Assembly: GCA_964495335.1 (NCBI GenBank)
Contig: CAZBVF010000029.1
Coordinates: forward strand, 1-43,596
Source: an uncultured Candidatus Saccharibacteria bacterium
Lineage (GTDB): Bacteria > Patescibacteriota > Minisyncoccia > Minisyncoccales > CAZBVF01
Direction of reading: 5' to 3'
DNA: 43,596 nucleotides
The translations under genes and the position numbers were made by a program. Every line of letters starts with the position of its first letter. Positions within the stretch are counted from its first letter, which is position 1. The notes beneath the pieces are model-generated. The model worked only from the letters and a program-made list of their open reading frames with translations, had not been told where the DNA came from and made no database searches. This document shows, piece by piece, positions 5,109 to 43,596 of this stretch.

Positions 5109-5316
5109 TTCCAAATTTTTTCTTTTTTTCGTATTCGGCTTTCAATTTTTCTTTTCTCAAAGCAGCTCTTTTTTTAAGCTGTTCTGATTTTTCTCTTTTT
5201 CTGAATCTGCTCTTCCTTGCCCTAATCAAAACTCCGCTTCTCTGAACACTTTGAGTGAAGCGCCTAATTAAGCTTTGAGGGTTTTCTTTTGGTTTTCTTT
5301 TTATTTCTATAGCCAT
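5086..5316 (-). CDS. rpsU: 30S ribosomal protein S21
   Basis: MAIEIKRKPKENPQSLIRRFTQSVQRSGVLIRARKSRFRKREKSEQLKKR matches the S21 pattern. The internal ATG at 5316 is preferred over the track start at 5364. Confidence 0.85.
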   Translation of the reverse strand: MAIEIKRKPKENPQSLIRRFTQSVQRSGVLIRARKSRFRKREKSEQLKKRAALRKEKLKAEYEKKKKFGNDFKRKN

Positions 5317-6999: not shown

Positions 7000-7001
7000 A
7001 T

Positions 7002-18711: not shown

Positions 18712-20845
18712 AAGTTCTCCCGGAAAAGACCTAATAGAAAGAGCACACCATTTTGCAGAAGAAGCTCACAGAGGACAAAAAAGAGCCTCGGGAGAAAACT
18801 ACATCTCCCACCCGGAAAAGGTGGCTGAAATTTTGAGCAGAACAAACCTTGACGCTCAAACAATAGCAGCTGCTTATCTTCATGATGTCCCCGAAGACAC
18901 CAACAAAACCTTGAAAGATATTGAAAAAGAATTCGGGAAAGAAATAGCTTTCTTGGTTGACGGAGTAAGCAAGCTGGGGAAATTAAGATATCCCAAAAAA
19001 GGACTACAAGTAAAAAACATAGAAAGCAGAGAAGATTCTCCCATTGATTTGAGGGCAGAAAGCTTGAGAAAAATGTTTTTTGCTATGGCAGAAGACTTAA
19101 GGGTAATTTTAATAAAACTTGCAGACAGGCTTCATAATATGCAAACTCTCGAATTCCTGCCGAAAGAAAAAAGGGAAAGAATCGCACTTGAGACTCTGGA
19201 AATATTCGCACCGCTGGCAAACAGGTTGGGAATGGGAGAAATGAAAGGACAGCTTGAAGACCTTGCTTTTCCTTATCTTTATCCAAAAGAATACAAATGG
19301 TTAACCGAAAATATAGGAGAAGAATATGAAGAAAGAAAAAAATACTTAAAAAGAGTAGAAATTGAACTCAAGAGAATACTTAAAAAAGAGGGCATAAGGC
19401 CGATCAATATCCATGCCAGAGCAAAGCATTATTGGAGCTTATATCAAAAACTTTTAAAGCACGACATGGATTTGAATAAAATATATGACATAGTTGCTTT
19501 AAGAATTATTTTAAAAGACGTTGAGTCTTGCTACAAAACATTAGGGTCCATACATAAATATTGGAAACCTCTTCCCGGAAGGATAAAAGACTATATCGCT
19601 CTTCCAAAACCAAACGAATACAGAGCTCTTCACACAACCGTTTTTTGCATAGAAGGAAAAATAACCGAATTTCAAATAAAAACGGAAAAAATGCATCAGG
19701 AGGCAGAAAACGGAATCTGTGCCCACTGGGCAAAAAAAGAAAAAATCGGATTTAAAAAAGAAATAAAAAAATTTGCCTGGGTCTCCCAATTAAGGGACTG
19801 GCAGGAAGAAGTTACAAAAAATAAAGATTTTTGGGAGGGTTTGAAAATTGATTTTTTTAAAAATAGAATATTTGTCTTCACTCCCAAAGGAGAGGTTGTA
19901 GATCTGCCCGAAGACGCTTCTCCGATTGACTTTGCTTATCAGATTCACAGCGAAATCGGAGATCATTGTGCCGGAGCAAAAATAAACAAAAAAATGAAAT
20001 CTCTTTCAACTCCTCTCAAAAACGGAGACGAAGTTGAAATAATAACCGATCCTTCCCAAAAACCATCCAGAAGCTGGATTGACTTTACTAAAACCAGCAT
20101 GGCCAAATCAAGAATCAAGTCTTTTTTAAAAAAAGAATCAAGGCCAAAAAATCTTAGAAGAGGAAAAGAAATAATAGACGAAACTTTAAAAGAATTTAAA
20201 AAACCGGCCTTTCAAAAAATATCCAAAGAAGAAAAAGAAAAAGTTTTAAAACAATTCGGGGAAGACAATATCGACGAAATCATGATTTCAATCGGGGAAG
20301 GAGAAATTTCTCCAAGAGAAATATTAAAGATTCTCTTCGACGAAAAAGACCTTTTTGGAAAGGAAGAAAAGAGAAAAGAAACGAAAAAGATTCCTCAGGA
20401 AAAAGGGATTATCTTAGCAGGAGAGAGCGGAATCAAATTAAAAATTGCCAAATGCTGCCTTCCATCCCCAAGCCATGAAATAGAAGGATATGTCACGAAA
20501 GGAGAAGGAGCAACAATACATAGAAAGAACTGTGAGAATCTGGAAAGATTAAGAAAGAAACACCCGGAGAGAATTATAGAGGCCCATTGGAAAAAGGAAA
20601 ATCTTTTTCCCGTTTCCTTGAAGCTAGAAGCTGAAGAAAGGAAAGATATAATAAAAGATATAACAATCTCTTTCAGCGAAGCTAAAGCAGATATTGAAAA
20701 AATCAAATCACAATTAAAAAAAGATGGGAAAACCATCATTGTTAGAATTGAAACCAAAGTTTCGGGATTAAGCCAGCTGAATGAAATTAGTTATAAATTA
20801 AAAGAATTAAACGGCGTTAAAAGCGTGAGGAAAATTAACTCTTAA
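18680..20845 (+). CDS. relA: Bifunctional (p)ppGpp synthetase/hydrolase (RelA/SpoT homologue)
   Basis: HD hydrolase domain (HRGQKRASGENYISHPEKVA, LHDVPEDT), synthetase domain (YRALHTTV), then TGS, a CC/zinc region and a C-terminal ACT-like domain. Overlaps the topA 3' end by 32 nt. Confidence 0.92.
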   Translation: MAAGIIKKIFKSSPGKDLIERAHHFAEEAHRGQKRASGENYISHPEKVAEILSRTNLDAQTIAAAYLHDVPEDTNKTLKDIEKEFGKEIAFLVDGVSKLGKLRYPKKGLQVKNIESREDSPIDLRAESLRKMFFAMAEDLRVILIKLADRLHNMQTLEFLPKEKRERIALETLEIFAPLANRLGMGEMKGQLEDLAFPYLYPKEYKWLTENIGEEYEERKKYLKRVEIELKRILKKEGIRPINIHARAKHYWSLYQKLLKHDMDLNKIYDIVALRIILKDVESCYKTLGSIHKYWKPLPGRIKDYIALPKPNEYRALHTTVFCIEGKITEFQIKTEKMHQEAENGICAHWAKKEKIGFKKEIKKFAWVSQLRDWQEEVTKNKDFWEGLKIDFFKNRIFVFTPKGEVVDLPEDASPIDFAYQIHSEIGDHCAGAKINKKMKSLSTPLKNGDEVEIITDPSQKPSRSWIDFTKTSMAKSRIKSFLKKESRPKNLRRGKEIIDETLKEFKKPAFQKISKEEKEKVLKQFGEDNIDEIMISIGEGEISPREILKILFDEKDLFGKEEKRKETKKIPQEKGIILAGESGIKLKIAKCCLPSPSHEIEGYVTKGEGATIHRKNCENLERLRKKHPERIIEAHWKKENLFPVSLKLEAEERKDIIKDITISFSEAKADIEKIKSQLKKDGKTIIVRIETKVSGLSQLNEISYKLKELNGVKSVRKINS

Positions 20846-22580: not shown

Positions 22581-22665
22581 GGGGATGTGTTGGAACCAGG
22601 TAGACAAAGAGGTCTCAAAAACCTCTGGACGCAAGTCCGTGAGGGTTCGATTCCCTCCATCCCCA
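22581..22665 (+). tRNA. tRNA-Leu (anticodon CAA), class II with long variable arm; CCA not encoded
   Basis: Hand-folded cloverleaf. Acceptor GGGGATG/CATCCCC, 3-bp D stem, anticodon stem GAGGT/ACCTC with loop CT-CAA-AA, variable arm GGAC-gcaa-GTCC, and T arm GAGGG-TTCGATT-CCCTC with discriminator A. Confidence 0.93.
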
Positions 22666-22674
22666 CAGATTTAT

Positions 22675-23352
22675 ATGTCCAGAAAGAAACTGCCCGATAA
22701 AAATTTTAAATGGACACCGGATCTTGCTTATGCAATAGGATTAATCACTACTGACGGATGCCTTTCTGGTGATGGTCGGCATATAATAATGAGATCATCT
22801 GATTTAGAATTATTAAAAACCTTTAAAAATTGTTTGCTCTTATCAAATAAAATAAAGAAAACTGCTCGTAGTGGCTGGGCAAAGAAACCTTCTTATAAAG
22901 TTCAGTTTGGCAATGTCCAATTATATCGATGGTTTCTTAAGATCGGGCTAACTCCTAAAAAAAGTTACACAATTAGCGAAATAAAAATCCCTGATAAGTA
23001 CTTTCCTGATTTTCTTAGGGGACACTTAGATGGAGATGGCTCAGTTTGGACATATAAAGATTATTATAATACATTTAAAAACCAAAAATATATTTATGAT
23101 CGCCTATGGGTTCGATTTATTTCCGCAAGTAAAAACCACATTGAATGGTTAAGAAAAAGTATTTTTAGATTAATAGGTTTAAAGGGGCGTCTTTACGAAA
23201 GAAAACCCAAAAGACCTGACCAAAAAACAAGCATATGGGAAATAAGATTTGCAAAAAAGGACTCAATTAAAATATTGTCTTGGTTGTACTACTTACCAAA
23301 TATTCCATGCTTGAGACGAAAAAGAGAAATTGCAGAAAAATTTATTAAATAA
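22675..23352 (+). CDS. Double-motif LAGLIDADG homing endonuclease (free-standing)
   Basis: Two LAGLIDADG motifs: LAYAIGLITTDGCL and FLRGHLDGDGSV. ATG at 22675; the track's N-terminal extension (22585) merely reads through the tRNA. Confidence 0.88.
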   Translation: MSRKKLPDKNFKWTPDLAYAIGLITTDGCLSGDGRHIIMRSSDLELLKTFKNCLLLSNKIKKTARSGWAKKPSYKVQFGNVQLYRWFLKIGLTPKKSYTISEIKIPDKYFPDFLRGHLDGDGSVWTYKDYYNTFKNQKYIYDRLWVRFISASKNHIEWLRKSIFRLIGLKGRLYERKPKRPDQKTSIWEIRFAKKDSIKILSWLYYLPNIPCLRRKREIAEKFIK

Positions 23353-23395: not shown

Positions 23396-24241
23396 ATGAT
23401 TATAGACACGCACACCCATTTAAATCTTAACGCTTTTAAGGAAGATTCCTTAAAAATTATTGAGAAATGCTTAGAAAATAATATCTGGATGGTAAACATA
23501 GGAACCCAATACGAAACAAGCAAAAAAGCAATACAAATAGCTGAAAACTACAAAGAGGGAGTTTATGCTTCCGTAGGACTGCACCCTATAAACTTGGAGA
23601 CGGGACTGGTTAAAATTAAAACGGACCCGGAAGAAGGAGGCTCAAGGGAAGAATTTTTTGATTATGAAAAATATAAAGAATTAGCATCAAAAAACAAGGT
23701 TGTAGCAATTGGAGAAATAGGTCTTGACTATTATTGGAAACCAAAAACAACTAAGAAAAAAAATCTTTTTAAAGAAAAACAAAAAGAACTTTTATCCCAG
23801 CAGTTAAAATTGGCAAAAGAATTGAAATTACCTGTAATATTTCATTGCCGAATGGCCCACGAAGACATGATAAATCTCTTAAAAGAAAAAGAAGACTTAA
23901 AGCCTCAAAAAGCAGTCGCTCACGGATTTGTAGGAACAGAAAAAGAACTCAAGGAATATTTAGATCTTGGCTTCTATGTAGGAATTAACGGAATAATATT
24001 TAAAGAAATAGAAGGAATTGATTTTGAGAAAAACATCAAAGAAATTCCTTTGGAAAAAATAGTTTTTGAAACCGACGCCCCTTATTTAACTCCCCCTCCT
24101 TTTCAAGGAAAAAGAAATGAGCCTTCTTTCTTAAAATATATAATTCAAAAAACAGCAGAAATAAAAAATATTCCTTTTGAGGAAATGTCAAAAATTTCTT
24201 TTGAAAACGCAACAAAATTATTTAATATTCCAAAACAATGA
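23396..24241 (+). CDS. tatD: TatD-family metal-dependent DNase/hydrolase
   Basis: IIDTHTHLN, AIGEIGLDYYW, PVIFHCR and ETDAPYLTP. Confidence 0.9.
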   Translation: MIIDTHTHLNLNAFKEDSLKIIEKCLENNIWMVNIGTQYETSKKAIQIAENYKEGVYASVGLHPINLETGLVKIKTDPEEGGSREEFFDYEKYKELASKNKVVAIGEIGLDYYWKPKTTKKKNLFKEKQKELLSQQLKLAKELKLPVIFHCRMAHEDMINLLKEKEDLKPQKAVAHGFVGTEKELKEYLDLGFYVGINGIIFKEIEGIDFEKNIKEIPLEKIVFETDAPYLTPPPFQGKRNEPSFLKYIIQKTAEIKNIPFEEMSKISFENATKLFNIPKQ

Positions 24242-26634
24242 CTTACGATCACAAAAAAATAGAAAAAAAATGGCAAAAACACTGGAAGGAAAAAGAATTT
24301 TTCCAAGCAGAGGATTTCTCCGAAAAACCAAAAAAATATATTCTCTTTGAATTTCCCTATCCTTCCGGAGACGGGCTTCATGTGGGACACACAAGAAGCT
24401 ATTCTGCTTTAGACGCAATAGCAAGAAAAAAAAGAATGGAAGGATTTAATGTTCTTTTCCCCATAGGATGGGATGCTTTCGGACTGCCCGCTGAAAATTA
24501 CGCCATTAAAACAGGAACCCACCCCAAAGAAGCAACCGAAAAAAACATCTCTAACTTTAAAAGACAGCTTGAAAGCATCGGCATGTCTCTTGACTGGGAA
24601 AGAGAAATTAATACAACCGATCCCAAATATTACAAGTGGACTCAATGGATATTCTTGAAACTTTTAGAAAACGACATGGCCTATCAATCAGAAATTCCCA
24701 TTAACTGGTGTCCCTCTTGCAAAACTGGATTAGCAAACGAAGAAGTAGTTTCGGGAAAATGCGAGAGATGCGGGACTCAAGTAGAAAGAAAAACAATTAA
24801 ACAATGGATGCTAAAAATCACAAAGTATGCTGACAGACTCATAGAAGATCTAAATGACGTTGAATATCCGGAAAGGGTTAAACTCCAGCAAATAAACTGG
24901 ATTGGGAAAAGCAAAGGAGTGGAAATAACTTTTAATTTAAAAGACTCCGAAGAAAAGATTAATGTTTTTACAACAAGAGCAGATACTCTTTTCGGAGTAA
25001 CAGCTCTTGTTTTAGCTCCGGAACATAAAATTGTATCTTCTCTGAAAGAAAAAGTTTCCAACAAAAAAGAAGTTGAAGAATATATAAAAGAATCAAAGAG
25101 AAAAAGTGAGTTTGAAAGAACCGAGCTGAGCAAGGAAAAAACAGGAATTGAGTTGAAAGGAATAAAAGCACTCAATCCCCTAAGTGAGGAAGAAGTTCCG
25201 GTTTGGGTTGGAGATTACGTTGTTTCAACTTATGGAGGCGGAGCTGTTATGGTAGTTCCCGCTCATGACTTCAGAGACTACGAATTTGCTCAAAAAAAAG
25301 GAATAGAAATAAGAGAAGTTGTATCAGGAGGAGATGTTTCAAAAGAAGCTTTTGTTAATTACGGAAAATTGATAAATTCTAATCAATTTAACGACTTGGA
25401 AAGCAAAGAGGCAATAAAAAAAATATCAGAAAAATTAAAAGAAAAAGGCTTGGGAAAAGAAAAAGTGAATTACAAGTTGAGAGACTGGATCTTCTCGAGA
25501 CAGCATTACTGGGGAGAGCCTATTCCTGTTATTCATTGTCCTAAATGCGGAACGGTTCCTGTTCCCGAAAAAGACCTTCCCGTTGAACTCCCCTATATTA
25601 AAAAATACCAGCCTACCGACACCGGAGAATCTCCATTGGCTTCTGTTGAAGAATGGGTTAATACGACTTGTCCCAAATGCGGGAGTCCGGCCAAGAGAGA
25701 AACAGATACTATGCCAAATTGGGCAGGATCTAACTGGTATTATATGAGATATATTGACCCTGATAATAACAAACAGATAGTTGACCCCGAAAAACTTAAA
25801 TATTGGATGCCCGTTGACTGGTATAACGGAGGAATGGAACACACAACACTGCATCTTCTTTACTCCAGATTTATCTATAAATTCCTCTATGATATCGGGA
25901 TATCCCCCCAGAAAGAACCTTATAAAAAAAGAACCTGTCACGGAATAGTTTTGGCTGAAGACGGAAGAAAAATGTCGAAGTCATTTGGCAACGTAATCAA
26001 TCCAGACAATATTATAAAACAGTTCGGAGCAGACACTTTAAGAATTTATGAAATGTTTATGGGACCTTTTGACCAGGCAATATCATGGAGCAACGAAGGA
26101 GTTAAAGGCTGCTACAAGTTTTTAAAAAAAGTTTGGAGCTTAATCAAAGAAAGGGAACCTGACGAAGAAAGCAGTAAAGAGGTATTAAAAGGCCTCAATA
26201 AACTCATCAAGAAAATAGGAGAAGATATGGAAGAAATGAAATTTAATACAGCAATAGCCTCTTTTATGGAATTTATTAATCTCTGCTCCAAAGAAAAGAT
26301 AAGTAAAGAAGAAAGAGACAAAATTATTATTCTTCTTTCCCCTTTCGCTCCCCACATGTCAGAAGAATTATGGCAAGAAACAGGACATGAAAAAAGTATT
26401 ACCCTTGAAAAATGGCCCGAATACGAAGAAAAATTCTTAAAAGAAGACCTCACAAACCTTATCATTCAAATAAACGGAAAGTTAAGAGACAAGGTTGACG
26501 TTGATTCTAATATCTCAAAAGAAAAAGCTCAAAAATTAGCATTAGAAAGGGAAAAAGTCAAAAAGTGGACACAGGAAAAAGAAATAAAAAAAATAATATT
26601 CGTTCCCGGAAAATTAATCAATATCGTTCTCTAA
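24238..26634 (+). CDS. leuS: Leucyl-tRNA synthetase
   Basis: PYPSGDGLHVGH (HIGH), CP1 editing domain TTRADTLFGVTALVLAPEH, and KMSKSFGN. ATGA overlap with tatD. Confidence 0.96.
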   Translation: MTYDHKKIEKKWQKHWKEKEFFQAEDFSEKPKKYILFEFPYPSGDGLHVGHTRSYSALDAIARKKRMEGFNVLFPIGWDAFGLPAENYAIKTGTHPKEATEKNISNFKRQLESIGMSLDWEREINTTDPKYYKWTQWIFLKLLENDMAYQSEIPINWCPSCKTGLANEEVVSGKCERCGTQVERKTIKQWMLKITKYADRLIEDLNDVEYPERVKLQQINWIGKSKGVEITFNLKDSEEKINVFTTRADTLFGVTALVLAPEHKIVSSLKEKVSNKKEVEEYIKESKRKSEFERTELSKEKTGIELKGIKALNPLSEEEVPVWVGDYVVSTYGGGAVMVVPAHDFRDYEFAQKKGIEIREVVSGGDVSKEAFVNYGKLINSNQFNDLESKEAIKKISEKLKEKGLGKEKVNYKLRDWIFSRQHYWGEPIPVIHCPKCGTVPVPEKDLPVELPYIKKYQPTDTGESPLASVEEWVNTTCPKCGSPAKRETDTMPNWAGSNWYYMRYIDPDNNKQIVDPEKLKYWMPVDWYNGGMEHTTLHLLYSRFIYKFLYDIGISPQKEPYKKRTCHGIVLAEDGRKMSKSFGNVINPDNIIKQFGADTLRIYEMFMGPFDQAISWSNEGVKGCYKFLKKVWSLIKEREPDEESSKEVLKGLNKLIKKIGEDMEEMKFNTAIASFMEFINLCSKEKISKEERDKIIILLSPFAPHMSEELWQETGHEKSITLEKWPEYEEKFLKEDLTNLIIQINGKLRDKVDVDSNISKEKAQKLALEREKVKKWTQEKEIKKIIFVPGKLINIVL

Positions 26635-31101: not shown

Positions 31102-31767
31102 ATGTACTTAGAAAATATGAATTATGACAAGATAGCAATGATGAAAGGAAATGTTTGGGATTTTCAGAAAATCTTTCAACTTCAAAAAGAAATAGCTTTT
31201 AAATTTCTTTTAGGCTTTAGCTTCTCTAATAAAGAGGAGCCATTGAAGATAGTAAAAATAGAAGATTCTTTACAACTTTTCTCAGAAACCATGATCTCCG
31301 ACAACGGTTCTACGTTTGACATCTTTTACAAGTTTCACTTGAGAGGAAAAGATGCTGCAGCCATTAAAAGCGTTTATGATAACAGACATGTCAACATAAC
31401 AAACAGGACCCTTGATGGAGAAATAAAGAAAGAGGGCAATGAGTTTGTCATAGATAACGAGCCAATACTATATCTTGGTGTGTCTGCAAGATCAATGAAT
31501 TGTCTATACAAAGAGAAAAGGTTTACCTCTTTTATTATGGATTTGAGAAAATTTGCAAAAGAAACATCAGAAGAATTTGAAAAAGATATATTTTTTCACA
31601 ACCCTCTCCAGAATGGATGTTTAAGCTTAGATGAAGAAGGTAACTTTGAAAAAATAGATATCGGGCTTTTTTATCCCAACACAATTAGATTTAAAAGAAA
31701 ATTCATAAAAGAAAGGAATGCGGATATTCCGGTAAAAATCAAAGAAATACATAAAGTAAATATTTAA
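31102..31767 (+). CDS. Hypothetical 221-aa protein (orphan, no TM or signal peptide seen)
   Basis: SD AAGGAGGT (31086-31093) 8 nt before the ATG, with a terminator immediately after the stop. No motif recognised. Confidence 0.75.
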   Translation: MYLENMNYDKIAMMKGNVWDFQKIFQLQKEIAFKFLLGFSFSNKEEPLKIVKIEDSLQLFSETMISDNGSTFDIFYKFHLRGKDAAAIKSVYDNRHVNITNRTLDGEIKKEGNEFVIDNEPILYLGVSARSMNCLYKEKRFTSFIMDLRKFAKETSEEFEKDIFFHNPLQNGCLSLDEEGNFEKIDIGLFYPNTIRFKRKFIKERNADIPVKIKEIHKVNI

Positions 31768-31824: not shown

Positions 31825-32769
31825 ATGAATAAAAAGGTAAAGGCTCTGGTATTGTTCTCTGGAGGATTGGACTCAATATTAGCCATAAAAATATTAAAGA
31901 AGCAAAAAATAGAAGTTACAGCTCTTTTTTTAAAAAGCTATTTTTTTGATGAGAAAAAAGCAAAAAAAACAGCAAAAAGAATAAAGATCCCTTTTATCTC
32001 AACTGATTTCTCAAAAGAACAATTAAAAACCGTGATGAACCCCAAGCACGGATACGGTTCGGCTTTAAACCCTTGCATTGACTGCCACAAGCTAATGATT
32101 AAAAAAGCTGAAAGAATAAGGAAAAGAGGTAATTTTGATTTTATTGCAACGGGAGAGGTCTTAGGGCAAAGACCCATGAGCCAAAATAAAAGAGCCATAA
32201 ATTTAATAGAAAGGCAGCTGGGAATGAAAGGAAAAATATTAAGACCTCTTTCAGCAAAATTGCTTGAAGAAACTCTTGCAGAAAAAAAAGGTTTAGTCCA
32301 AAGAGAAAGCCTCCTTGGTATTAAAGGAAAATCAAGAAAAAAACAATTAGAATTAGCAAAAGAATTCAATTTAAAAGAACACCCTACCCCTGCGGGAGGA
32401 TGCATTTTAACAGATAAGGATTTTTCGGAAAGATTGAAAGAATTGTTTAAAATATGGAAAGGAGCTGAAAGAAAAGAAAAATATTTTGAGAACGATATAG
32501 GGCTTTTAAAAGTAGGGCGACACTTTAAAAAAAATTCAGCTAAAATTATAGTCGGCAGGAACGAGAAAGAAAATAAAACTATAGAAAAGCTGTCTTTAAA
32601 AAAAGATATATTAATTGAAATGGAAAATTATCCGGGCCCTCTTGTCTTGTTAAGATTCTACAAAGGAAAAAAAGAAAAATTAGTAAAAGAAGCAAAAAAA
32701 ATCACCCAACATTATTCAACTAAATCAAGATTCAAAAAAGATGTCTCTTTTTCAATTCGGGAGATTTAA
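31825..32769 (+). CDS. PP-loop ATP pyrophosphatase, ThiI/MnmA-like tRNA thiolation-type enzyme (no THUMP or rhodanese domain)
   Basis: PP-loop LFSGGLDS, NPCIDCHKLM, ATGEVLGQRPMSQ, ILRPLSAKL and PAGGCILTD. Family assignment is from memory of ThiI-type motifs. Confidence 0.8.
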   Translation: MNKKVKALVLFSGGLDSILAIKILKKQKIEVTALFLKSYFFDEKKAKKTAKRIKIPFISTDFSKEQLKTVMNPKHGYGSALNPCIDCHKLMIKKAERIRKRGNFDFIATGEVLGQRPMSQNKRAINLIERQLGMKGKILRPLSAKLLEETLAEKKGLVQRESLLGIKGKSRKKQLELAKEFNLKEHPTPAGGCILTDKDFSERLKELFKIWKGAERKEKYFENDIGLLKVGRHFKKNSAKIIVGRNEKENKTIEKLSLKKDILIEMENYPGPLVLLRFYKGKKEKLVKEAKKITQHYSTKSRFKKDVSFSIREI

Positions 32770-32773
32770 TATT

Positions 32774-34225
32774 CTAAATTCTGGGGAAAAGAGATTTTCC
32801 TTTTTTAACTTTAAAAGAATTACTTTTTTCATCTTTCCCGGTTCCAATAATTTCTAAAATCTTTTCCGATGTATCGGGTAAGAAAGGACTGATCATTAAA
32901 GCAATGTTCTTGATTGAAAAAACTAAATCAAAAATAACTTGTTTTTTATCTTCAGAATTTTCCCAAGGCCTTTCTTTCTCAATCAAAGAATCACAAAAAC
33001 TGATTAATTCCCAAACAACCATTAACCCTTCATTAAACTTGAAGTTATCAAGCGCTTTTTTATATCCTTCCCATGCACTTTCTATCTTTTCTTTTACTTC
33101 CAAATTGGAATCTTGAGAGCCAAAATCCAAATTTTCTGCCATAGCGCTTACTCTTGAGACCAAGTTTCCCAGTCCTTTAGCCAAATCGCTATTGTATCTG
33201 GATTCAAGCTTATCATAAGTGAAATCCCCGTCTTCCGTTGAAGGAATCTCTCTTAAAAGAAAATATCTTACAGCGTCAACCCCGTATTTTTCAACAGTTT
33301 CAAAAGGATCAATAACATTCCCTGAACTTTTTGACATTTTTTGATTGCCCGAAGTAATAAAGCCATGAATAAAAATTTGTTTTGAAGGCTTTAATCCTGC
33401 GGACATGAGCATAGCTTGCCACATAGAAGATTGCTGACGCAAATTATCCTTTCCCGCTGTTTGCATCCCAGGCCAAAAATCATTAAATTTTTTCACGTTG
33501 TCAGGCCATCCCAAACAAGAAATGTAATTGACCAATGCATCAAACCAAACATACATTACTTGATCTTCGTCACCAGGAACAGGAATCCCCCAGGGCATTT
33601 TTTCTTTCAATCTGGATATGCTGAAATCTTTTAATCCCTTTTTGGTAAATTCCTTTATTTCCTGAAGCCTAGAGTTGGGAACAACAAAATTCGGATTTTT
33701 TCCATACAATTTCATCAGTCTTTCTTGAAAATTAGAATAACGGAAAAAATAGTTTTCCTCTTCAATAATTTCCATTTCCTGATTTGGGTGCAAAGGACAC
33801 TTTCCGTTAACAAGTTCTGACTCTGTTTTTTCCAATTCACAGCCCGGACAATACTTTATTTTATATTTTTTCTTGTATATATCGCCATTTTCATTGCATC
33901 TCTTCCAGAACTCCTGGGCTGCTTTAATATGATCATCATCTGTGGTTCTTATAAAATTATCGTAACTTAAATTTAAAATACCTTTTAGTTTTTTAAATTC
34001 TGATGCATTCTCATCACAAAATTCTTGAGGGCTCATTCCTTTTTCTTTTGCTTTTCTATATATTTTAGATCCGTGTTCATCAGTTCCGGTATTAAAAAAA
34101 ACTTCATCTCCCATGTTTCTGCGATATCTTGCAATCACGTCTGTTTGAATTATTTCCAAGGCAAAACCAATATGCGGCCTGCTATTAACATAAGGCAGTG
34201 TTGTTGTGATATAAAATTTACTCAT
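32774..34225 (-). CDS. metG: Methionyl-tRNA synthetase (short form, no C-terminal tRNA-binding domain)
   Basis: LPYVNSRPHIGF (HIGH-type), Zn knuckle CPGCELEK...CPLH, and KMSKSSGN. Confidence 0.95.
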   Translation of the reverse strand: MSKFYITTTLPYVNSRPHIGFALEIIQTDVIARYRRNMGDEVFFNTGTDEHGSKIYRKAKEKGMSPQEFCDENASEFKKLKGILNLSYDNFIRTTDDDHIKAAQEFWKRCNENGDIYKKKYKIKYCPGCELEKTESELVNGKCPLHPNQEMEIIEEENYFFRYSNFQERLMKLYGKNPNFVVPNSRLQEIKEFTKKGLKDFSISRLKEKMPWGIPVPGDEDQVMYVWFDALVNYISCLGWPDNVKKFNDFWPGMQTAGKDNLRQQSSMWQAMLMSAGLKPSKQIFIHGFITSGNQKMSKSSGNVIDPFETVEKYGVDAVRYFLLREIPSTEDGDFTYDKLESRYNSDLAKGLGNLVSRVSAMAENLDFGSQDSNLEVKEKIESAWEGYKKALDNFKFNEGLMVVWELISFCDSLIEKERPWENSEDKKQVIFDLVFSIKNIALMISPFLPDTSEKILEIIGTGKDEKSNSFKVKKGKSLFPRI

Positions 34226-36598: not shown

Positions 36599-37927
36599 TT
36601 ACTTCATTTTCTCTTCTATGGTTCTTTTTAAATCATCAATCTTCACCCTTTCTTGTTCCATAGTATCCCTATTTCTCAAAGTAACGTCATTATTCTCCAA
36701 AGTATCAAAATCGCAAGTCACACACCAGAGAGTTCCTACCTCATCCTGTCTTCTGTATCTTCTGCCAATAGAACCGGCCTCGTCATACTGACAAGAAAAA
36801 TCAAGTTTCAGTTCGTCAAAAACCTTTTTTGATTTTTCAATTAATTCCTGATTATTCTTAACTAAGGGGAGAACGGCAATTTTCACAGGAGCTAAGTCTT
36901 TGTGAAGATTTAAAAAGATTTCTTTTTCCTTTTTTGAATCGGTAGTTTTTGTTCTTCCTCCTTCAATTTCAGTATAAGAATCAACCAAGAAAGCAAACAA
37001 GCTTCTGTCTGCTCCTACTGAAGTTTCAATGATATAAGGAAAGAATTTTTCTCCCGTTTTCTGGTCAAAATACTTAAGCTCTTTTCCCGAATGTCTTGAG
37101 TGATTAGAAAGATCATAATCGCCTCTGTTGTGAATTCCTTCGATTTCTTTCCATCCGAAAGGAAAACGATACTCAATGTCAACTTGCCTTCTGGCATAAT
37201 GAGCTCTTTCTTCTTCCGGAATTTCAACTGCTCTTAAGTTTTCTTTTTTTAATCCTAAATTCAAATACCAATTAATTCTTTGCTCTTTCCAGTATTCAAA
37301 AAACTTTGGAGCTTCATCTGGATGGCAAAACCACTGCATTTCCATCTGCTCAAATTCTCTGGTTCTGTATATAAAATCCTTTGGAGTTATTTCGTTACGG
37401 AAAGATTTTCCTATTTGGGCAATACCGAAAGGAATCTTAAGTCTCATTGAACTCATAACGTTTTCAAAATTAACATATATTCCCTGACATGTTTCAGCCC
37501 TTAAATATGTTTGGGAAGATTCATCTTCCAAAGAACCTGTAAAGGTTTTCATCATTAAATTGAACTTCTTTGGCTTTGTGAGTTCTCCTCCGCAACTAGG
37601 GCACTTCTCTTCTTTTTTAATTTCGTCTAGCTTAAATCTCTTATGGCATTCTTTGCATTCAACAAGTTCATCTGCAAATCCAGCAGTCAAATGACCGGAA
37701 GCCTGCCAAACAAGAGGACTCATTAAAATGGAAGCGTCCAGTCCGACAATATTTTCATGTTTCCTGATTATATCTTTCCTCCAGGCTTCTTTAATATTAT
37801 TTTTCATTTCAACGCCCAAAGGCCCGAAATCATAACAGGAAGCAAATCCTCCGTATATTTCTGAAGATTGAAATACGAATCCTCTTCTTTTGCAAAGAGA
37901 TATAATTTTGTTCATTAAATTATCCAT
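36599..37927 (-). CDS. glyQS: Glycyl-tRNA synthetase (alpha2 homodimeric GlyQS type)
   Basis: RRGFVFQSSEIYGG, FNLMMKT, YLRAETCQGIYVNF, GKSFRNEITP and ETSVGADR, with a C-terminal anticodon-binding domain. Confidence 0.95.
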   Translation of the reverse strand: MDNLMNKIISLCKRRGFVFQSSEIYGGFASCYDFGPLGVEMKNNIKEAWRKDIIRKHENIVGLDASILMSPLVWQASGHLTAGFADELVECKECHKRFKLDEIKKEEKCPSCGGELTKPKKFNLMMKTFTGSLEDESSQTYLRAETCQGIYVNFENVMSSMRLKIPFGIAQIGKSFRNEITPKDFIYRTREFEQMEMQWFCHPDEAPKFFEYWKEQRINWYLNLGLKKENLRAVEIPEEERAHYARRQVDIEYRFPFGWKEIEGIHNRGDYDLSNHSRHSGKELKYFDQKTGEKFFPYIIETSVGADRSLFAFLVDSYTEIEGGRTKTTDSKKEKEIFLNLHKDLAPVKIAVLPLVKNNQELIEKSKKVFDELKLDFSCQYDEAGSIGRRYRRQDEVGTLWCVTCDFDTLENNDVTLRNRDTMEQERVKIDDLKRTIEEKMK

Positions 37928-37934
37928 AAGTTTA

Positions 37935-37943
37935 ATTATCTCA
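37935..37943 (-). promoter_or_regulatory. Extended -10-like element (TGaGATAAT) 7 nt upstream of the glyQS ATG
   Basis: Minus strand: TGA GATAAT taaactt ATG(37927). Overlaps the stop codon of the upstream gene. Confidence 0.35.
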
Positions 37944-39618
37944 CTACTCCCTCTTCTTCCGAAACACTTTCATCATCCGGAAGAGTTGTATCAACAGGAT
38001 CCACCTTAAATTCCAAGTCTTTATTGGTCCATTCATCTTCTCCCGTAATAACAGCTTCTCCCATTATATTCGGTGTCTTTCCTTTTTGAGAGGAGTCGGG
38101 CTTGAAAGATACTTGAAAAGAAATACTTAGAGGTTCATTTTTAACTCCCTTCCCGGCTTCTATCTCTCCTATAGACCAGACCAACTCTTCAGAGTCTGAG
38201 TCAAAGGCGAAGTGTTCGCTTTCAGATTCCGGAGAAATTTCTCCCGTCAGGGAAACATTCTCTGGCAAGGAAGACTTCACTTTGGCATTTTTAATGTCAT
38301 TGTAATAATTCTTTACTTGCCAGGTCACCGTATAAGTCGTTTCTTCTCCTGTTCTCGGGGGAACGGGTCCTGAATTTTCAAAGATTTCATTATCAGAATA
38401 AACTTTTTGAGACAAATCCATCTTTGAGTTAATCTTAACCTCAAAGTCGTGCCGGACTTGGCTCAAATGCACCCTATTTTTAAGAATAGGGTTGGAAGGG
38501 GGGCGATTATCCGATCCCCAGTCATCTTTTATTCTTATCCAAAACTCAACTTCATCTTCTTCTTGGGACGGTAAAAGCTTAAGGTCTGAGTTGGTTCTCC
38601 AATCAAAAACAATAGAATTGTTCCCCGAACTGAACTCTCCTTCCTCAGATTCAATACTTGAAAAATCAAAAGCTTCTCCTTCAAGATCTATGTTTAAAAA
38701 TAAATTAAGCAAATCATCCTCTCCAAGATTTCTAAAGAAAACTTCGTAATGAAGTAGTTCTCCGGGAGAAGCAACATGTTCGGGATTGCCATTTACCTGC
38801 TGGGTAATATGCAAAGAAGGTTTAGATATTTCAACACCCCAACTTATCTCTCTTAAAACAACCATTTCCCCTTCTTTCCAAACACCAAGCTTCGCTCTAA
38901 ATGTTTTTTTATCTCCTATTTCCCCTTCAAGTTTACCATTAACCTTAATTTTCCCTCCTTGGTTATTATTTAAAAGAGGAATCTCCCATTCATTTTTTTC
39001 TGTCCCCTCCGGGCTAGAACTGATAAATTCAAAGCCTGAGGGATATTCAATTACGATTTTGAGGTCTGAAAGAGAATAGTCAGCATTAGAATAATATATA
39101 AGATCTGCATTAATATCTTTTCCTGCTTCCATTTTTGAAGGAAGATCAAAATCAAAAGATAAGGGAACTTTTCTAATAATCGTAGTAAAGCTTGTTGAGC
39201 TTTCATAATATGTTTTAAGATTTTTGGGACTATAACTTAAAGAGGCATTGGCTGTTTTGTTTTCATTTTCTTTTCCCAATAGTCTGGCTTTGAAAGAAAA
39301 GGTTTTTTCTTCTCCGGGATAAATTGCGCCTCCGAACTCTTCGCTCCCTTTTATGACTCTTTCCGGTCCTTCAAAATAAGAATTTTCCGGATATTCAAAA
39401 ACAAGTTCCGGGTCATCAACTCTGATATCCCCATTATTTTTATATTTAACAAGATATTCAATTTCCTCTCCCATTTCCGCTTCAGAAGGTCCTATTATTT
39501 CCAGCTTTATAATGTCTTTGGAGTAAAGATTGCCTTTAAAAGAAAAATATCCAACTACCCCCAGGATAGCGGTTACGATTATTAAAAATATTATAAATTT
39601 TCTGCTTATTAATGCCAT
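37936..39618 (-). CDS. Membrane-anchored surface protein with repeated CARDB/DUF11-like beta-sandwich segments
   Basis: N-terminal TM FIIFLIIVTAILGVVGYF. About four divergent repeats of the type G-x-E-x-x-Y-x-V-x-(Y/F)-x-N-x-G (for example GEEIEYLVKYKNNGD, GELLHYEVFFRNLGE, GEETTYTVTWQVKNY) and an acidic C-terminus. Confidence 0.8.
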   Translation of the reverse strand: MALISRKFIIFLIIVTAILGVVGYFSFKGNLYSKDIIKLEIIGPSEAEMGEEIEYLVKYKNNGDIRVDDPELVFEYPENSYFEGPERVIKGSEEFGGAIYPGEEKTFSFKARLLGKENENKTANASLSYSPKNLKTYYESSTSFTTIIRKVPLSFDFDLPSKMEAGKDINADLIYYSNADYSLSDLKIVIEYPSGFEFISSSPEGTEKNEWEIPLLNNNQGGKIKVNGKLEGEIGDKKTFRAKLGVWKEGEMVVLREISWGVEISKPSLHITQQVNGNPEHVASPGELLHYEVFFRNLGEDDLLNLFLNIDLEGEAFDFSSIESEEGEFSSGNNSIVFDWRTNSDLKLLPSQEEDEVEFWIRIKDDWGSDNRPPSNPILKNRVHLSQVRHDFEVKINSKMDLSQKVYSDNEIFENSGPVPPRTGEETTYTVTWQVKNYYNDIKNAKVKSSLPENVSLTGEISPESESEHFAFDSDSEELVWSIGEIEAGKGVKNEPLSISFQVSFKPDSSQKGKTPNIMGEAVITGEDEWTNKDLEFKVDPVDTTLPDDESVSEEEGVVR

Positions 39619-39634: not shown

Positions 39635-40354
39635 TTAATTCATTGATTCTAAAAGAAATGAATAATAAAAATTGGTAATTTTTTTTATAGACTCAAAATG
39701 AGTTTTTTTTATTTTTAATTTGTCAAAATATTCCCAATTATTTTCAAGAATAATCCTGATAATTTTAACCGATTCAGGGCTTATCTCCAAAAAATTGCTC
39801 TCTTTAACACATTTCTCACAAATTAATCCTCCTTTTTCCGAAGAAAAATAGAAAGGCGGTGATGCTTTATCCGAGCAAACAGAACAATTTACCAAAGAAG
39901 GCTTAAAACCGATAAAATTAATAAAGTTCCAAAAAAAATAGTAGTAATTTTTAAAATCCGAATTTAGAGAATGATTACTGTTAAGGCGTTTAAAACTATC
40001 TTTTAAAATTTTCCACACTTTCTCGTCCTTTTCTTCTTCGCTCGTTAACTTTAGTAAAATTTCGGAAATCTTATGTCCTATTTTTAGTTTAACCAAGGAT
40101 AAAGAAATGTTTTCAAATCTTTCTTTGGAAAGAGAATCAACAAGTGTTTTTTGATTTCTTCCTTGAATAAATTCAATTTGACTTAAATTAAAAAGTTTTA
40201 ACCCTCCTCTTAATTTAGATTTAACTTTTCTTGAAGCTCTGGCTAAAACAAGTATCTTTCCAAAGTCTTGCGTGTAAACCGTAAAAAGCTGGTCGGCATC
40301 TCTAATGTCTCTTTTTTTTAAAATAATTCCGTCAGTTAAATAACGAACAAACAT
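39635..40354 (-). CDS. recO: DNA repair protein RecO
   Basis: N-terminal OB-fold pattern (GIILKKRDIRDADQLFTVYTQDFGKI, ARASRK) and a C-terminal Zn finger CSVCS...CEKC. 239 aa. Confidence 0.85.
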   Translation of the reverse strand: MFVRYLTDGIILKKRDIRDADQLFTVYTQDFGKILVLARASRKVKSKLRGGLKLFNLSQIEFIQGRNQKTLVDSLSKERFENISLSLVKLKIGHKISEILLKLTSEEEKDEKVWKILKDSFKRLNSNHSLNSDFKNYYYFFWNFINFIGFKPSLVNCSVCSDKASPPFYFSSEKGGLICEKCVKESNFLEISPESVKIIRIILENNWEYFDKLKIKKTHFESIKKITNFYYSFLLESMN

Positions 40355-40357
40355 ATC

Positions 40358-43300
40358 CTATACCTTTCTGATTCCTAACCATAACTTTTCATTCCCAATA
40401 ACAAATTCATTTTCCAAGTCAAAAGAATCTTTCTTTTTTTCAAAACTCTGAGCTTTTGATTCTTTTAAAATAAACTCTTTGGACTCTTCCAAAATTTTAT
40501 TCATTTCACCACCCTCATAACCCACAGAAATCTTATCTTCGGGCTTAAGCTTGGCTTTTTTTCTCATCACTTGTATTGACCTTACAACTTCTCTCAATAA
40601 TCCTTCTTTTTTAAGTTCATCGCTAATTAAGGTGTCAAGCTTAACTTTCTCTTCGATTGAATCGTCAAAAGATACATTTTTAACGTTAACCTCTTCTTTT
40701 ATTAATTCAACAATATCTTCTTTCAAGGCAGAACTTTTGATAGTAAGGGAACTTAAGGGCTGCCTTACTTTGATCCCGGCAGAAGATCTCTCAGACAAAG
40801 CCAGCCTGACTATTTCTCTTGCTTCTTCCATCTCTTCATCAAGTTTTTGATCAATTAAAGATGGATCTGCTTTTGGCCAATCTTCTAAATGAATACTTTC
40901 TTTGTTCCCCCCTACTCCCTTGTAGATCTCTTCGGGTAAAAAAGGAATAAAAGGAGCGGATAATTTGCTCAGAGATAATAAAACATAAGCTATGGTTTCT
41001 GATGCCTCTTTAAATTCTTTCTCGTTTTGAGGCTTTTGGAGCCTTTTTCTTGATCTTCTAATATACCACTGGGAAAAATTTTCAACAACAAAAGATTCAA
41101 TCATTCTTGCCGCAGGAACAATTTCGTACTTTTCCAAAAGGCCGGAAGATTCTTCTATTAGCCTGTTCAATTTAGAGATAATCCATTTGTCCAAAAGATT
41201 AGAAGAGTTAAAAGTTTTAAAATTAATGTCTTTTTCTTTCTTATATGTTTGTAAAAAAACAAAACAATTCCACAAAGTCATTATGAATCTTTTTAAACAG
41301 TCTTCAACGTCTTTTTCTTTAAAAAGCTTTTGATCTCCTGCCTTGTTTACCGTAAAGAAATACCATCTGAGTGCATCACATCCGTATTTTTTGATCAATT
41401 CTAAAGGATCTACAATATTTCCTTTGCTTTTGGACATTTTATTCCCTTTTTCATCAAGAATATGTCCTAAGGATATAACATTTTTATAGGAAGTTCCGAA
41501 TTCCAGAAGAGTAGAAATTGCAAGAAGAGTATAAAACCATCCTCTTGTTTGGTCTACTCCTTCGCAAATATAATCAGCAGGGAAAAGTCTGGGCTGAAGA
41601 TTCCCTTTCTCATTTTTTTTGGTTTCTTTTTCCTCAAAAGGAAAATGAAATTGGGCAAAAGGCATAGATCCCGCATCAAACCAGCAATCGATAACCTCAG
41701 GTACTCTTTTCATTAAACTGTTGCATTTGGGGCAATAAAACTCGACCTCATCAATAAAGGGTCTGTGGGGATCAATTTTCATTTCCTTGTCATAAGGAAG
41801 ATTTTTAAATTCAATCTTCTTAATTTGAGCGGTTTCAAAAGAATTATTTTCTTTGAATTCACCTAATTTCTCATCAGGCTCCCCTGTCACAGAGAAAGCC
41901 ATTAAAAGAAGAGGAGCTCCGTGGCTTATAATAAGAATGTTCTGATTTTTGTATTTTTTGTTTATATCTTTCAAAAAAGAATAAACTCTTTTTTTAACAT
42001 CTCTATAGCTTTCCCCGCCGGGCACTTCTATGTCAAAAAGATTTTTACCCTCAAGATATTCTTTTATTTTTTTAACCGCTTGGCCGTTAAAATCCCCTGC
42101 GTCAAGTTCTCTTATTCTTTCATCAAACTTTATCTCAGCTCCAATTTCTCTGGAAATAATTTCAGCCGTTTCTTTTGTTCTTTGAAGGTCTGAGGAAATT
42201 ATTAAGCTTATGTTTTTTTCTTTCAATTTTTTTGCACTTTCCAGAGATTCTTTTTTCCCTTCCTCTGTCAAAGGATAAGATTCTTTCTCGGGAAAAGAGG
42301 AGGCAATTTCTTTTTCATTTCTAAGACTGTATCCGTGCCTCATTAAATAATAGTTATTGGAACTGAATTTTTGAGAAGACAATTCACTAAAGCTTCCTAT
42401 TGTTTTTCTTTCCCCGCATTTTTCACACTCCCAAACAGGAAGAGGCGTTCCCCAATATCTTTCCCTTGAAAAAGCCCAATCTTTAACTTCATTAAGCCAT
42501 TGTCCAAACCTTCCTTCTTTAATGTGAGAAGGATGCCAATTAATTTTCTGATTGTTTTCAATGAGCCGATTTTTTACTTCCTGCATGTTAATAAACCAAC
42601 TCCTCTTAGCATAATAAAGCAAGGGAGAAGAACATCTCCAACAAAAAGGATAATCATGCTCATAAATTTTTTCTGCAAAAAGAAAATCTTTTTCTTTCAA
42701 ATAATTAATAATTAAAGATTCTGTTTCTTCATCTTTTACATATCTGCCACTTAAGTTATATCCAACCTCTTTTACAAAATTACCTTCTTGACTAACAGTA
42801 TGAACCTTGGGCAATCCAACTTTTTCTCCCAAAAGATAATCGTCTTCCCCATACATAACAGCCGTATGGACAATTCCCGTTCCTTCTTCTGAAGTAACAA
42901 AATCAGCAGGATAAATTTTATAAGAAGCCTCTGTTTTTAATTCTTTAATTTCAAATAAAGGAAAATAAGAAAGTTCAACAAGCTCAGATCCTTTAAAAGT
43001 TTTAAAATTAGTCCAGTTTTCTCCTTTAATTTTCTCTTTGTAAGATTCAGGAAAAATATCTTCCTTAAGCATGTCTTTGAAGTTATCCAGTCCCAAAACC
43101 ATTTTCCATTCTTCTTTCCCGGGATCGGGAACAATAATATAATCATTTTCAGGATTGACAGCCAAAGCCACGTTTCCCGGCAAAGTCCAGGGAGTGGTTG
43201 TCCAGGAAATAGCCGAAACTTTTTCCCACCCCGGAGACAGTATTTTAAATCTTAAATAAACAGAATTGTCCTTAACTTTTTTATACCCCAAAGCAACTTC

Positions 43301-43596
43301 ATGGCTGGAAAGGCTCGTTCCGCACCTCGGACAGAAAGGAACTATCTTGTGTCCTTTATAAACAAGCCCTTTTTCGCTTATCTTCTTTATAATCCACCAG
43401 ACAGTTTCAACATAATCGTTGCTGTAAGTAACATAAGCTCTTTCCATATCAACCCAAAAAGCAATTCTTTCCGTTACTCTTTCAAAATAATCCTTATATT
43501 TCCAAACAGAAGACTTGCATTTTTCATTGAACTCGGCAATCCCGTATTTTTCTATATCTTTTTTGCTTTTAAGATTAAGCTCTTTTTCCACTTCCA
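40358..43596 (-). CDS. ileS: Isoleucyl-tRNA synthetase (5' end, including HIGH, lies beyond the window) carrying an internal histidine-phosphatase domain
   Basis: CP1 editing motif WTTTPWTLPGN, WGTPLPVWECEKCG, PEVIDCWFDAGS, GVDQTRGWFY and KMSKSKGN. The frame is open to the window edge; the track's M at 43591 is an internal GTG. Confidence 0.95.
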   Translation of the reverse strand, partial: EVEKELNLKSKKDIEKYGIAEFNEKCKSSVWKYKDYFERVTERIAFWVDMERAYVTYSNDYVETVWWIIKKISEKGLVYKGHKIVPFCPRCGTSLSSHEVALGYKKVKDNSVYLRFKILSPGWEKVSAISWTTTPWTLPGNVALAVNPENDYIIVPDPGKEEWKMVLGLDNFKDMLKEDIFPESYKEKIKGENWTNFKTFKGSELVELSYFPLFEIKELKTEASYKIYPADFVTSEEGTGIVHTAVMYGEDDYLLGEKVGLPKVHTVSQEGNFVKEVGYNLSGRYVKDEETESLIINYLKEKDFLFAEKIYEHDYPFCWRCSSPLLYYAKRSWFINMQEVKNRLIENNQKINWHPSHIKEGRFGQWLNEVKDWAFSRERYWGTPLPVWECEKCGERKTIGSFSELSSQKFSSNNYYLMRHGYSLRNEKEIASSFPEKESYPLTEEGKKESLESAKKLKEKNISLIISSDLQRTKETAEIISREIGAEIKFDERIRELDAGDFNGQAVKKIKEYLEGKNLFDIEVPGGESYRDVKKRVYSFLKDINKKYKNQNILIISHGAPLLLMAFSVTGEPDEKLGEFKENNSFETAQIKKIEFKNLPYDKEMKIDPHRPFIDEVEFYCPKCNSLMKRVPEVIDCWFDAGSMPFAQFHFPFEEKETKKNEKGNLQPRLFPADYICEGVDQTRGWFYTLLAISTLLEFGTSYKNVISLGHILDEKGNKMSKSKGNIVDPLELIKKYGCDALRWYFFTVNKAGDQKLFKEKDVEDCLKRFIMTLWNCFVFLQTYKKEKDINFKTFNSSNLLDKWIISKLNRLIEESSGLLEKYEIVPAARMIESFVVENFSQWYIRRSRKRLQKPQNEKEFKEASETIAYVLLSLSKLSAPFIPFLPEEIYKGVGGNKESIHLEDWPKADPSLIDQKLDEEMEEAREIVRLALSERSSAGIKVRQPLSSLTIKSSALKEDIVELIKEEVNVKNVSFDDSIEEKVKLDTLISDELKKEGLLREVVRSIQVMRKKAKLKPEDKISVGYEGGEMNKILEESKEFILKESKAQSFEKKKDSFDLENEFVIGNEKLWLGIRKV
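41790..42352 (-). other. In-frame histidine-phosphatase (phosphoglycerate-mutase-like, His_Phos_1-type) domain inserted in ileS
   Basis: LMRHGYSLRN (RHGxxxxN), PLTEEG, SSDLQRTKETAEII, IRELDAGDFNG, PGGES and LIISHGAPLL appear in canonical order, between the IleRS segments ...CEKCGERKTIGSFSEL and DPHRPFIDEVEFYCPKC... Confidence 0.8.

Follow-up and report, generated by a model that had tools for sequence, protein, structure and literature searches.

Aminoacyl-tRNA synthetases are among the best-studied enzymes, and the domains that have been added to them serve mostly in tRNA binding, editing or scaffolding. Lineage-specific insertion modules in the catalytic domains of class Ia synthetases include the CP2 and CP3 elements and the leucine-specific domain of leucyl-tRNA synthetase (LeuRS). 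Here we describe an isoleucyl-tRNA synthetase (IleRS) in which the inserted module appears to be a second enzyme. Its gene, ileS, lies at the end of a stretch of 43,596 nt from an uncultured Candidatus Saccharibacteria bacterium (contig CAZBVF010000029.1, assembly GCA_964495335.1), the whole of which we call the window, and it encodes a complete histidine phosphatase between the two halves of the IleRS zinc knuckle. Patescibacteria, the group to which this organism belongs, are ultra-small, mostly uncultured symbionts with a pared-down metabolism.

The host enzyme is best compared with the solved type-2 enzymes (IleRS2) of Priestia megaterium (8C8U/8C8V) and Thermus thermophilus (1ILE), with which it shares the domain order, the editing motif, KMSKS, the zinc-knuckle cysteines and the C-terminal domains; the G-x-H-H variant of the first motif described for IleRS2 is likewise found in homologues of the window protein. 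The difference is that in the solved enzymes the two CxxC halves of the knuckle are approximately 5 residues apart, where the window protein has an enzyme domain of 196 amino acids (aa). The CP2 and CP3 elements and the LeuRS module likewise sit in a surface element of the Rossmann-fold catalytic domain and leave the core intact, but they are small, non-enzymatic elements with structural or tRNA-contact roles, whereas the insert is an enzyme domain with an active site of its own. The domain nomenclature for the CP2 and CP3 elements of class Ia synthetases is given in PMC11685878.

For the guest, the comparison is with H. thermophilus PspA (4IJ5), B. stearothermophilus PhoE (1H2E), CobC and M. 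tuberculosis GpgP, which have the same fold (template-modelling (TM) score 0.7–0.79), the same catalytic residues and a similar size of about 190–210 aa. These enzymes are only 20–26% identical to the insert, have an R-x-Q-G loop that the insert lacks, and are free-standing, while the insert is embedded in a synthetase and its nearest relatives are encoded beside one. There is a precedent for a bacterial IleRS with an extra enzyme domain in NCBIfam family NF040702, but there the domain is a GNAT rather than a phosphatase, and at 228 bits against a cut-off of 1999 the window protein is no member. A branch-1 phosphatase attached to a nucleic-acid enzyme is known from the RNase H/CobC-type acid phosphatases (Rv2228c type, NF005567). 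The insert matches that model partially (80–84 bits, below the cut-off of 326), and the fusion there is terminal and to another partner, as opposed to the internal insertion seen here. We are thus dealing with a normal type-2 IleRS and a small histidine phosphatase that looks normal and belongs to a new subfamily, that is, with two known families combined. A search of 8.3 million full texts returned no description of this architecture or of a phosphatase–ileS gene pair, and a 2026 preprint on domain evolution across IleRS makes no mention of a phosphatase-bearing form. The architecture is visible in databases, as public sequences and precomputed Pfam hits, and apparently unstudied.

The inserted phosphatase and its host enzyme

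The ileS reading frame runs past position 43596. The window holds 1078 of its codons; what it lacks is the N-terminal ~90 aa with the first class I signature motif. Despite the absent N-terminus and the insert, the NCBIfam model for ileS (TIGR00392) scores 733.4 bits against a cut-off of 621.4. In Pfam, tRNA-synt_1 is matched twice, on either side of His_Phos_1, and Anticodon_1 and DUF5915 are found as well. The assignment to type 2 follows from the presence of DUF5915 and from the best PDB matches, which are the P. megaterium and T. thermophilus enzymes (PmIleRS2 and TtIleRS), ahead of any type-1 enzyme (IleRS1). A full-length AlphaFold2 (AF2) model has a predicted local distance difference test score (pLDDT) of 87.9 and a predicted TM score (pTM) of 0.79, with values of ~90–97 in the phosphatase segment; the best Foldseek matches of this model are the IleRS2 structures 8c8v/8c8u and 1ile, and yeast IleRS superposes too.

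An earlier note on this DNA, made from the sequence alone, had reported that the editing and KMSKS motifs of the synthetase are kept, and both WTTTPW and KMSKS are indeed read at their coordinates (Table 1). The first class I motif can be read only in close homologues, as GIHH or GLHH: in homologues P0121–P0240 it is G-[IL]-H-H in place of HxGH, with GIHH in 69 of 118 and GLHH in 10 of 118. This is the non-canonical G/AXHH motif, which in IleRS2 has been linked to mupirocin hyper-resistance (Brkic et al., 2023, PMC10485003). The models for the mupirocin-resistance enzymes MupA and MupB give the window protein 680 and 671 bits, short of the cut-off of 1900. In the insert-less IleRS of 11 related loci, a motif search read HYGH in three and GIHH in three and picked up no motif in five.

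The insert comprises 196 aa and is in frame between the two CxxC halves of the zinc knuckle. Pfam family PF00300 matches aa 416–582 (nt 41849–42349) over profile positions 2–171 of 194, with E = 1.7e-34 and 119.7 bits (gathering threshold 21.7). In an alignment to P. megaterium IleRS2 (8c8u), query aa 406 falls on residue 475 and query aa 601 on residue 480, so that ~195 residues stand against ~5; the IleRS2 of 77 loci from other phyla (Dehalococcoidia, Clostridia and others) have 7–24 residues at the same point. The earlier note likewise gives ordinary IleRS only a short linker here. From the alignment to 8c8u we set the boundaries at aa 407–602; the range first proposed, 41790–42352, covers the domain itself, while the full insert extends 24 nt further upstream, to 42376.

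By direct translation all five catalytic residues of a branch-1 histidine phosphatase are present at the codons expected, with the two histidines at 42335–42337 and 41921–41923 as had been noted. One feature sets the sequence apart. In the loop after the RHG motif the canonical R-x-Q-G is replaced by [CS]-W-P-E-K, three residues longer, which reads FPEK in the window protein. Modelled alone by AF2, the insert reaches a pLDDT of 93.9 and a pTM of 0.91. The top Foldseek matches are PspA (4ij6), GpgP, PhoE, CobC and TIGAR, with E ~1e-14 and TM 0.74–0.79 for PspA, GpgP and PhoE, and a sequence search for solved relatives agrees, with PspA 4IJ5 the nearest. Profile and structure-based searches both place the insert in the histidine-phosphatase superfamily.

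Within that superfamily the label "PGAM-like" used earlier does not fit, and we replace it with "small phosphatase-like". The acid-residue motif of the insert is GGES, of the phosphatase type; in the mutases this motif is E-R-H-Y-G. Identity as a cofactor-dependent phosphoglycerate mutase (dPGM) is rejected by the NCBIfam models dPGM_arch (87–91 bits, cut-off 225), GpmB (73–77, cut-off 261) and pgm_1 (33, cut-off 81.7). The phosphatase models are not reached either: CobC α-ribazole phosphatase (TIGR03162) scores highest, with 95–99 bits against 162.9, the PspA phosphoserine phosphatase model (NF045917) gives 77–81 against 350 although PspA is the nearest solved structure, and SixA phosphohistidine phosphatase (TIGR00249) gives 33 against 74.5. 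With the PADLOC anti-phage defence models the insert has one match at chance level (E = 0.005) and a stand-alone homologue none.

The conservation of the domain can be followed in the 120 best full-length database matches to the window protein, which are 49–75% identical to it overall. PF00300 is found at the same site in all 120. Their named sources are Nealsonbacteria, Wildermuthbacteria, Pacebacteria/Paceibacterota and the "Patescibacteria group". R419, H420, R472 and E528 are invariant and H558 is kept in 119 of the 120, in agreement with the earlier view that the catalytic residues are retained and the module is probably active rather than a relic. To judge from these counts, the catalytic set of the insert is under selection. 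In more distant relatives the insert is ~43% identical while the two IleRS parts are 51–54% identical, so that the insert is almost as constrained as the essential enzyme that carries it. A neutral relic is ruled out for practical purposes by the invariant catalytic residues in more than 100 divergent sequences, the intact frame and the confidently predicted fold.

Two trivial explanations can also be set aside. An assembly chimera is ruled out since the same architecture occurs in more than 100 independent assemblies and one complete genome. Specifically, a 669-aa fragment from an independent contig (P0127) is 100% identical to the window protein and includes PF00300 and the C-terminal IleRS domains, many short database fragments span the insert junctions, and an insert-bearing IleRS is encoded in a complete 647-kb Nealsonbacteria chromosome (L025, CP179889.1). 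A recent mobile insertion is ruled out by the deep vertical conservation and by base composition, which, as noted earlier, matches that of the host gene: the insert has a G+C content (GC) of 0.328 and the remaining gene one of 0.344, and at third codon positions (GC3) the insert has 0.276 compared with 0.283 and 0.303 in the flanking parts.

The earlier note had also called the architecture unfamiliar. That holds for the literature and not for the databases, where it is far from rare. An exhaustive search with the insert against 1.84 billion cluster representatives gave 2507 matches at E ≤ 1e-10; among the nearest 148 of these representatives (50%-identity clusters), about 80 lie inside IleRS-like synthetases, 62 stand alone and 6 belong to other architectures. 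By these numbers the phosphatase-bearing IleRS is the standard form in a large part of Patescibacteria, although database annotation of such proteins routinely reads just isoleucine--tRNA ligase. One of them (P0230, 1659 aa) carries an intein (PF14890) in addition to the phosphatase insert.

Split and fused forms of the locus

The strongest evidence for a functional link between the phosphatase and IleRS is, in our reading of the loci, the pattern of split and fused genes. A scan with an alignment of the insert as query, limited to one genome per species, returned 80 loci. Of these, 23 have the domain within ileS. Another 15, all from Patescibacteria (Staskawiczbacteria, Portnoybacteria and other Parcubacteria), have a separate gene of ~190 aa as the closest homologue, and in every one of them this gene precedes, on the same strand, an ileS that lacks the insert. 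The two genes mostly abut; one or two unrelated genes stand between them in four loci. The remaining 40 loci hold ordinary phosphatases of other phyla, 25–38% identical to the insert, with the exception of two Patescibacteria loci (L053 and L063), and ileS is near none of them.

Clustering of the neighbouring open reading frames (ORFs) shows that the two arrangements belong to a single syntenic block. Genomes with separate genes have the order argS – phosphatase – ileS – recO – DUF11 protein, and genomes with the fusion have argS – ileS(with insert) – recO – DUF11 protein. The window holds the downstream half of this block, recO and the DUF11 protein, and a gene of the recO family follows ileS in 20 of 40 related loci. 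The stand-alone proteins have the WPEK loop and the same catalytic set as the insert, and the loop is missing from the phosphatases of other phyla. The insert thus belongs to a distinct, Patescibacteria-specific subfamily of histidine phosphatases marked by the W-P-E-K loop, and this subfamily occurs in two interchangeable states of one block: as a gene upstream of ileS or as a domain in a surface loop of the catalytic core of IleRS. A second scan, with the C-terminal part of IleRS as query, returned mostly IleRS2 of other phyla, which we used as negative controls; no phosphatase homologue was found within 4.5 kb in the 77 control loci.

Some details of the split loci may be recorded here. In one Staskawiczbacteria locus (L019) a CYTH (triphosphate tunnel) protein is encoded at 4561–5151, between the stand-alone phosphatase and ileS. 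The same locus has a reverse-transcriptase ORF and an amino-acid-kinase-family gene upstream of argS, and a gene of this kinase family is found there in 6 loci.

The zinc knuckle is not the only site of insertion. Mapping the flanks of other inserts onto the window protein puts further copies at three places: immediately behind the second CxxC (P0253), in the loop that follows the WFDSG strand at window aa ~662/668 (P0293, P0363, P0352, P0283 and L006), and in the loop before the anticodon-binding domain at aa ~786/790 (P0302, P0352, P0283 and P0253). Tandem copies occur at the main site in P0267, P0338 and P0340, and P0253 has three copies in three different loops. A phosphatase-bearing IleRS thus has one to three copies, and almost every copy, whatever its site, retains the catalytic set. 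Every site falls in the stretch from the zinc knuckle to where the anticodon-binding domain begins, around that half of the catalytic fold which carries KMSKS; in the mapped proteins the editing and C-terminal domains are free of phosphatase copies.

Peribacteria and Gracilibacteria are the source of the proteins that use the two downstream sites, and their IleRS are nearest to spirochaete IleRS2. Among the loci of the scan that showed this, none of 78 others, almost all of spirochaetes, had a phosphatase domain. Because the nearest relatives lack the domain and the sites differ, insertion in the Peribacteria/Gracilibacteria lineage was independent of that in the lineage of the window. Site positions and host lineages, from which we take a minimum estimate of the number of independent insertions, show that insertion took place in several loops and in two IleRS lineages that are far apart. 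The phosphatase domains themselves are too divergent for a distance-based tree (pairwise distances ~0.8–1.4), with one clear case: the second copy of L006 is closest to the first-site copies of its near relatives, which suggests an intragenic duplication into a new loop. As a separate observation, IleRS is preceded by a tandem, more distant IleRS/ValRS-like gene in a Spirochaeta sp. (L094, 2500–8625) and in L162 (512–6015), and neither has a phosphatase.

The subfamily is also found, sporadically, on other enzymes. In the valyl-tRNA synthetase (ValRS) of Parcubacteria BM519 (L063, 2672–6055; 940 bits on the valS model) it is inserted after WWGHRIPVW, in the loop equivalent to that of IleRS; this copy reads RHT rather than RHG, and an ASCH domain follows further downstream. 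A 1161-aa ValRS fragment (P0241), with its insertion at the same place, contains four phosphatase domains, and a search across the junction gave few clear examples, so that this form is rare. C-terminal fusions occur with arginyl-tRNA synthetase (ArgRS; P0255), with the threonylcarbamoyl-AMP synthase TsaC/Sua5 (P0304 and P0380) and with a PAB0415/Dph6-like putative ATP pyrophosphatase (P0446). The link to synthetases is seen in three ways: as a gene upstream of ileS, as insertions at several loops, and as fusions to other adenylate-forming enzymes. The series further illustrates clearly how, in nature, a domain has been inserted again and again into surface loops of an essential enzyme.

Candidate functions

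Taken together, these data lead us to lean towards an insert that is a folded, catalytically active small-branch phosphomonoesterase, not a mutase, and a built-in partner of IleRS. We hold with more confidence that the phosphatase acts together with IleRS and that selection favours its physical closeness to the synthetase, because internal insertion has been repeated across loops, lineages and copies. A conserved hydrolytic site in the core of IleRS implies that a phosphorylated molecule is handled as part of Ile-tRNA synthesis.

As to which molecule, our tentative choice is a small phosphorylated compound that adenylate-forming reactions have in common, since the other fusion partners all split ATP into an adenylate and pyrophosphate (PPi), with AMP released finally, and since the best-scoring curated model, CobC, acts on a ribonucleoside-5'-phosphate analogue. 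The favoured candidates would be PPi or a nucleoside 5'-monophosphate-type product of adenylate formation, and local removal of such a by-product could pull amino-acid activation forward. An alarmone is less necessary as a substrate because the window already encodes a Rel/SpoT protein with an HD hydrolase domain (18680–20845).

Several points weigh against this reading as a whole or against the choice of substrate. We know of no branch-1 histidine phosphatase that acts as a pyrophosphatase, and a tethered hydrolase gains little for small diffusible products. The domain is absent from the LeuRS (24238–26634), methionyl-tRNA synthetase (MetRS; 32774–34225), histidyl-tRNA synthetase (HisRS; 5722–7005) and class II synthetase (36599–37927) encoded in the window; given LeuRS, MetRS and HisRS without it, a mechanism that pulls the adenylation must explain why mainly IleRS is affected. 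The insert is below the cut-off of every curated NCBIfam phosphatase and mutase model, and its sequence names no substrate. The ArgRS fusion could be a by-product of adjacency, argS being the upstream neighbour. Finally, and this counts against a tRNA substrate as well, some Patescibacteria IleRS loci (L162 and L203) have neither an insert nor a neighbouring phosphatase gene.

The alternative that fares best assigns the phosphatase to the tRNA itself: it would strip a 3'-, 2'- or 5'-phosphate from the tRNA held by the synthetase, making damaged or unusually processed tRNA chargeable. Tethering fits a macromolecular substrate best, with the synthetase body providing tRNA binding, and most fusion partners are tRNA enzymes (IleRS, ValRS, ArgRS, and TsaC of the t6A pathway), one ValRS even having the RNA-binding ASCH domain beside the phosphatase. 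The location of all IleRS sites around the KMSKS-bearing half, from the zinc knuckle to the start of the anticodon-binding domain, fits as well. A comparison of the net charge of phosphatase domains, as a proxy for RNA binding, was uninformative. However, to our knowledge no member of the histidine-phosphatase family acts on RNA ends. A need for repair would also cover all tRNAs and not mainly tRNA-Ile, yet LeuRS and MetRS of the window have no such domain, and neither TsaC nor the ATP-pyrophosphatase-like partner holds the acceptor end of a tRNA. We therefore consider a tRNA-end phosphatase rather unlikely.

Somewhat less plausible still is a housekeeping phosphatase, for sugar phosphates, phosphoserine or the like, that belonged to the argS–ileS operon and was merged in streamlined genomes, the fusion only securing co-expression. 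The ancestral place between argS and ileS would explain the C-terminal ArgRS fusion (P0255), and the nearest solved relatives (PspA, GpgP and PhoE) are metabolic phosphatases. Simple read-through, however, cannot put a domain inside the downstream gene, let alone into four IleRS loops, two unrelated IleRS lineages and a ValRS loop, with as many as three copies in one IleRS and four copies in one ValRS. Adjacency to ileS also holds in 15 of 15 unfused loci, while the other neighbours vary.

That the domain dephosphorylates the synthetase, for example at a serine of the KMSKS region as a HipA-type target, or senses a phosphometabolite and tunes IleRS, is very improbable. The superfamily does include the protein phosphatases SixA, PGAM5 and Sts-1, HipA/HipT kinases target the ATP-binding loop of class I synthetases and so inactivate them, and the insertion sites lie on either side of the half of the fold that bears KMSKS; but the SixA model gives 33 bits against a cut-off of 74.5, PADLOC finds no match to defence or conflict systems, the fusions to TsaC and to the ATP-pyrophosphatase-like protein do not fit, and nothing here points to HipA-type kinases.

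Among the more general readings, it is possible, though we hold it tentatively, that aminoacylation by IleRS in much of Patescibacteria includes a dedicated phosphatase as an integral part not recognised before, and that the same holds sporadically for other adenylate-forming tRNA enzymes. The extra catalytic step, one that other bacteria do not need or carry out elsewhere, would then be either dephosphorylation of the tRNA acceptor end or on-enzyme removal of PPi or a nucleotide. If this is true, an aminoacyl-tRNA synthetase would have a built-in catalytic activity of a new kind. A function so tightly attached to an essential enzyme likely reveals a real constraint, whether in PPi or nucleotide economy, in tRNA processing and repair, or in the protection of translation. 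The fused protein and the natural split pair of stand-alone phosphatase and insert-less IleRS provide ready-made experimental and control constructs.

Feature coordinates and the rest of the window

Table 1. Coordinates in the window of ileS, the inserted phosphatase, their motifs and the adjoining genes of the conserved block. Homologue counts refer to the 120 best full-length matches.
Feature	Position	Strand	Basis
ileS, type-2 (eukaryote-like) IleRS	40358–43596, cut at the N-terminus by the window end	-	TIGR00392, Pfam, AF2/Foldseek
ileS stop codon	40358–40360	-	
WTTTPW, editing-domain motif	43187–43204	-	direct translation; 120/120 homologues
CEKC, first CxxC of zinc knuckle, upstream flank of insert	42416–42427	-	both Cys 120/120
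Inserted histidine phosphatase (His_Phos_1, branch 1)	41789–42376, aa 407–602 of the visible ORF	-	PF00300, AF2, 8c8u alignment
R419-H420, RHG motif; H420 is the phospho-acceptor histidine	42335–42340	-	translation; R and H each 120/120
FPEK, subfamily-specific [WF]-P-E-K loop	42284–42295	-	P435 120/120, E436 114/120
R472, second phosphate-binding arginine (SSDLQRTKETA)	42179–42181	-	translation; 120/120
E528, general acid (PGGES)	42011–42013	-	translation; 120/120
H558, second catalytic histidine (ISHG)	41921–41923	-	translation; 119/120
CPKC, second CxxC of zinc knuckle, downstream flank of insert	41723–41734	-	both Cys 120/120
KMSKS signature loop of IleRS	41426–41440	-	direct translation; 120/120 homologues
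recO, downstream member of the argS-[phosphatase]-ileS-recO-DUF11 block	39635–40354	-	Pfam RecO_N, RecO_C
DUF11 protein of the conserved block	37936–39618		

The remainder of the window, from 2031 to 40354, is a typical small-genome Patescibacteria stretch with many translation and cell-cycle genes. It includes ftsZ, ftsA, hisS, lepB, pth, a short mfd-like helicase, subunits of a 2-oxoacid:ferredoxin oxidoreductase, ligA, topA, rel/spoT, parB, parA, tatD, leuS, glmS, a cofD-like gene, metG, a class II synthetase and recO. Three ORFs have no Pfam match, those at 31102–31767 and 11082–11495 and a weak ORF at 10314–11030. The sole Rfam match in the window is a tRNA at 22581–22665 (52.6 bits), which overlaps the 5' end of an ORF of 255 aa at 22585–23352 on the plus strand; probably either the start of this ORF is wrong or it is not a gene. 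Another plus-strand ORF, at 31825–32769, has an unusual combination of a PP-loop ATPase-like part (weak ThiI, tRNA_Me_trans and QueC matches) and a C-terminal NFACT-R_2 RNA-binding domain.

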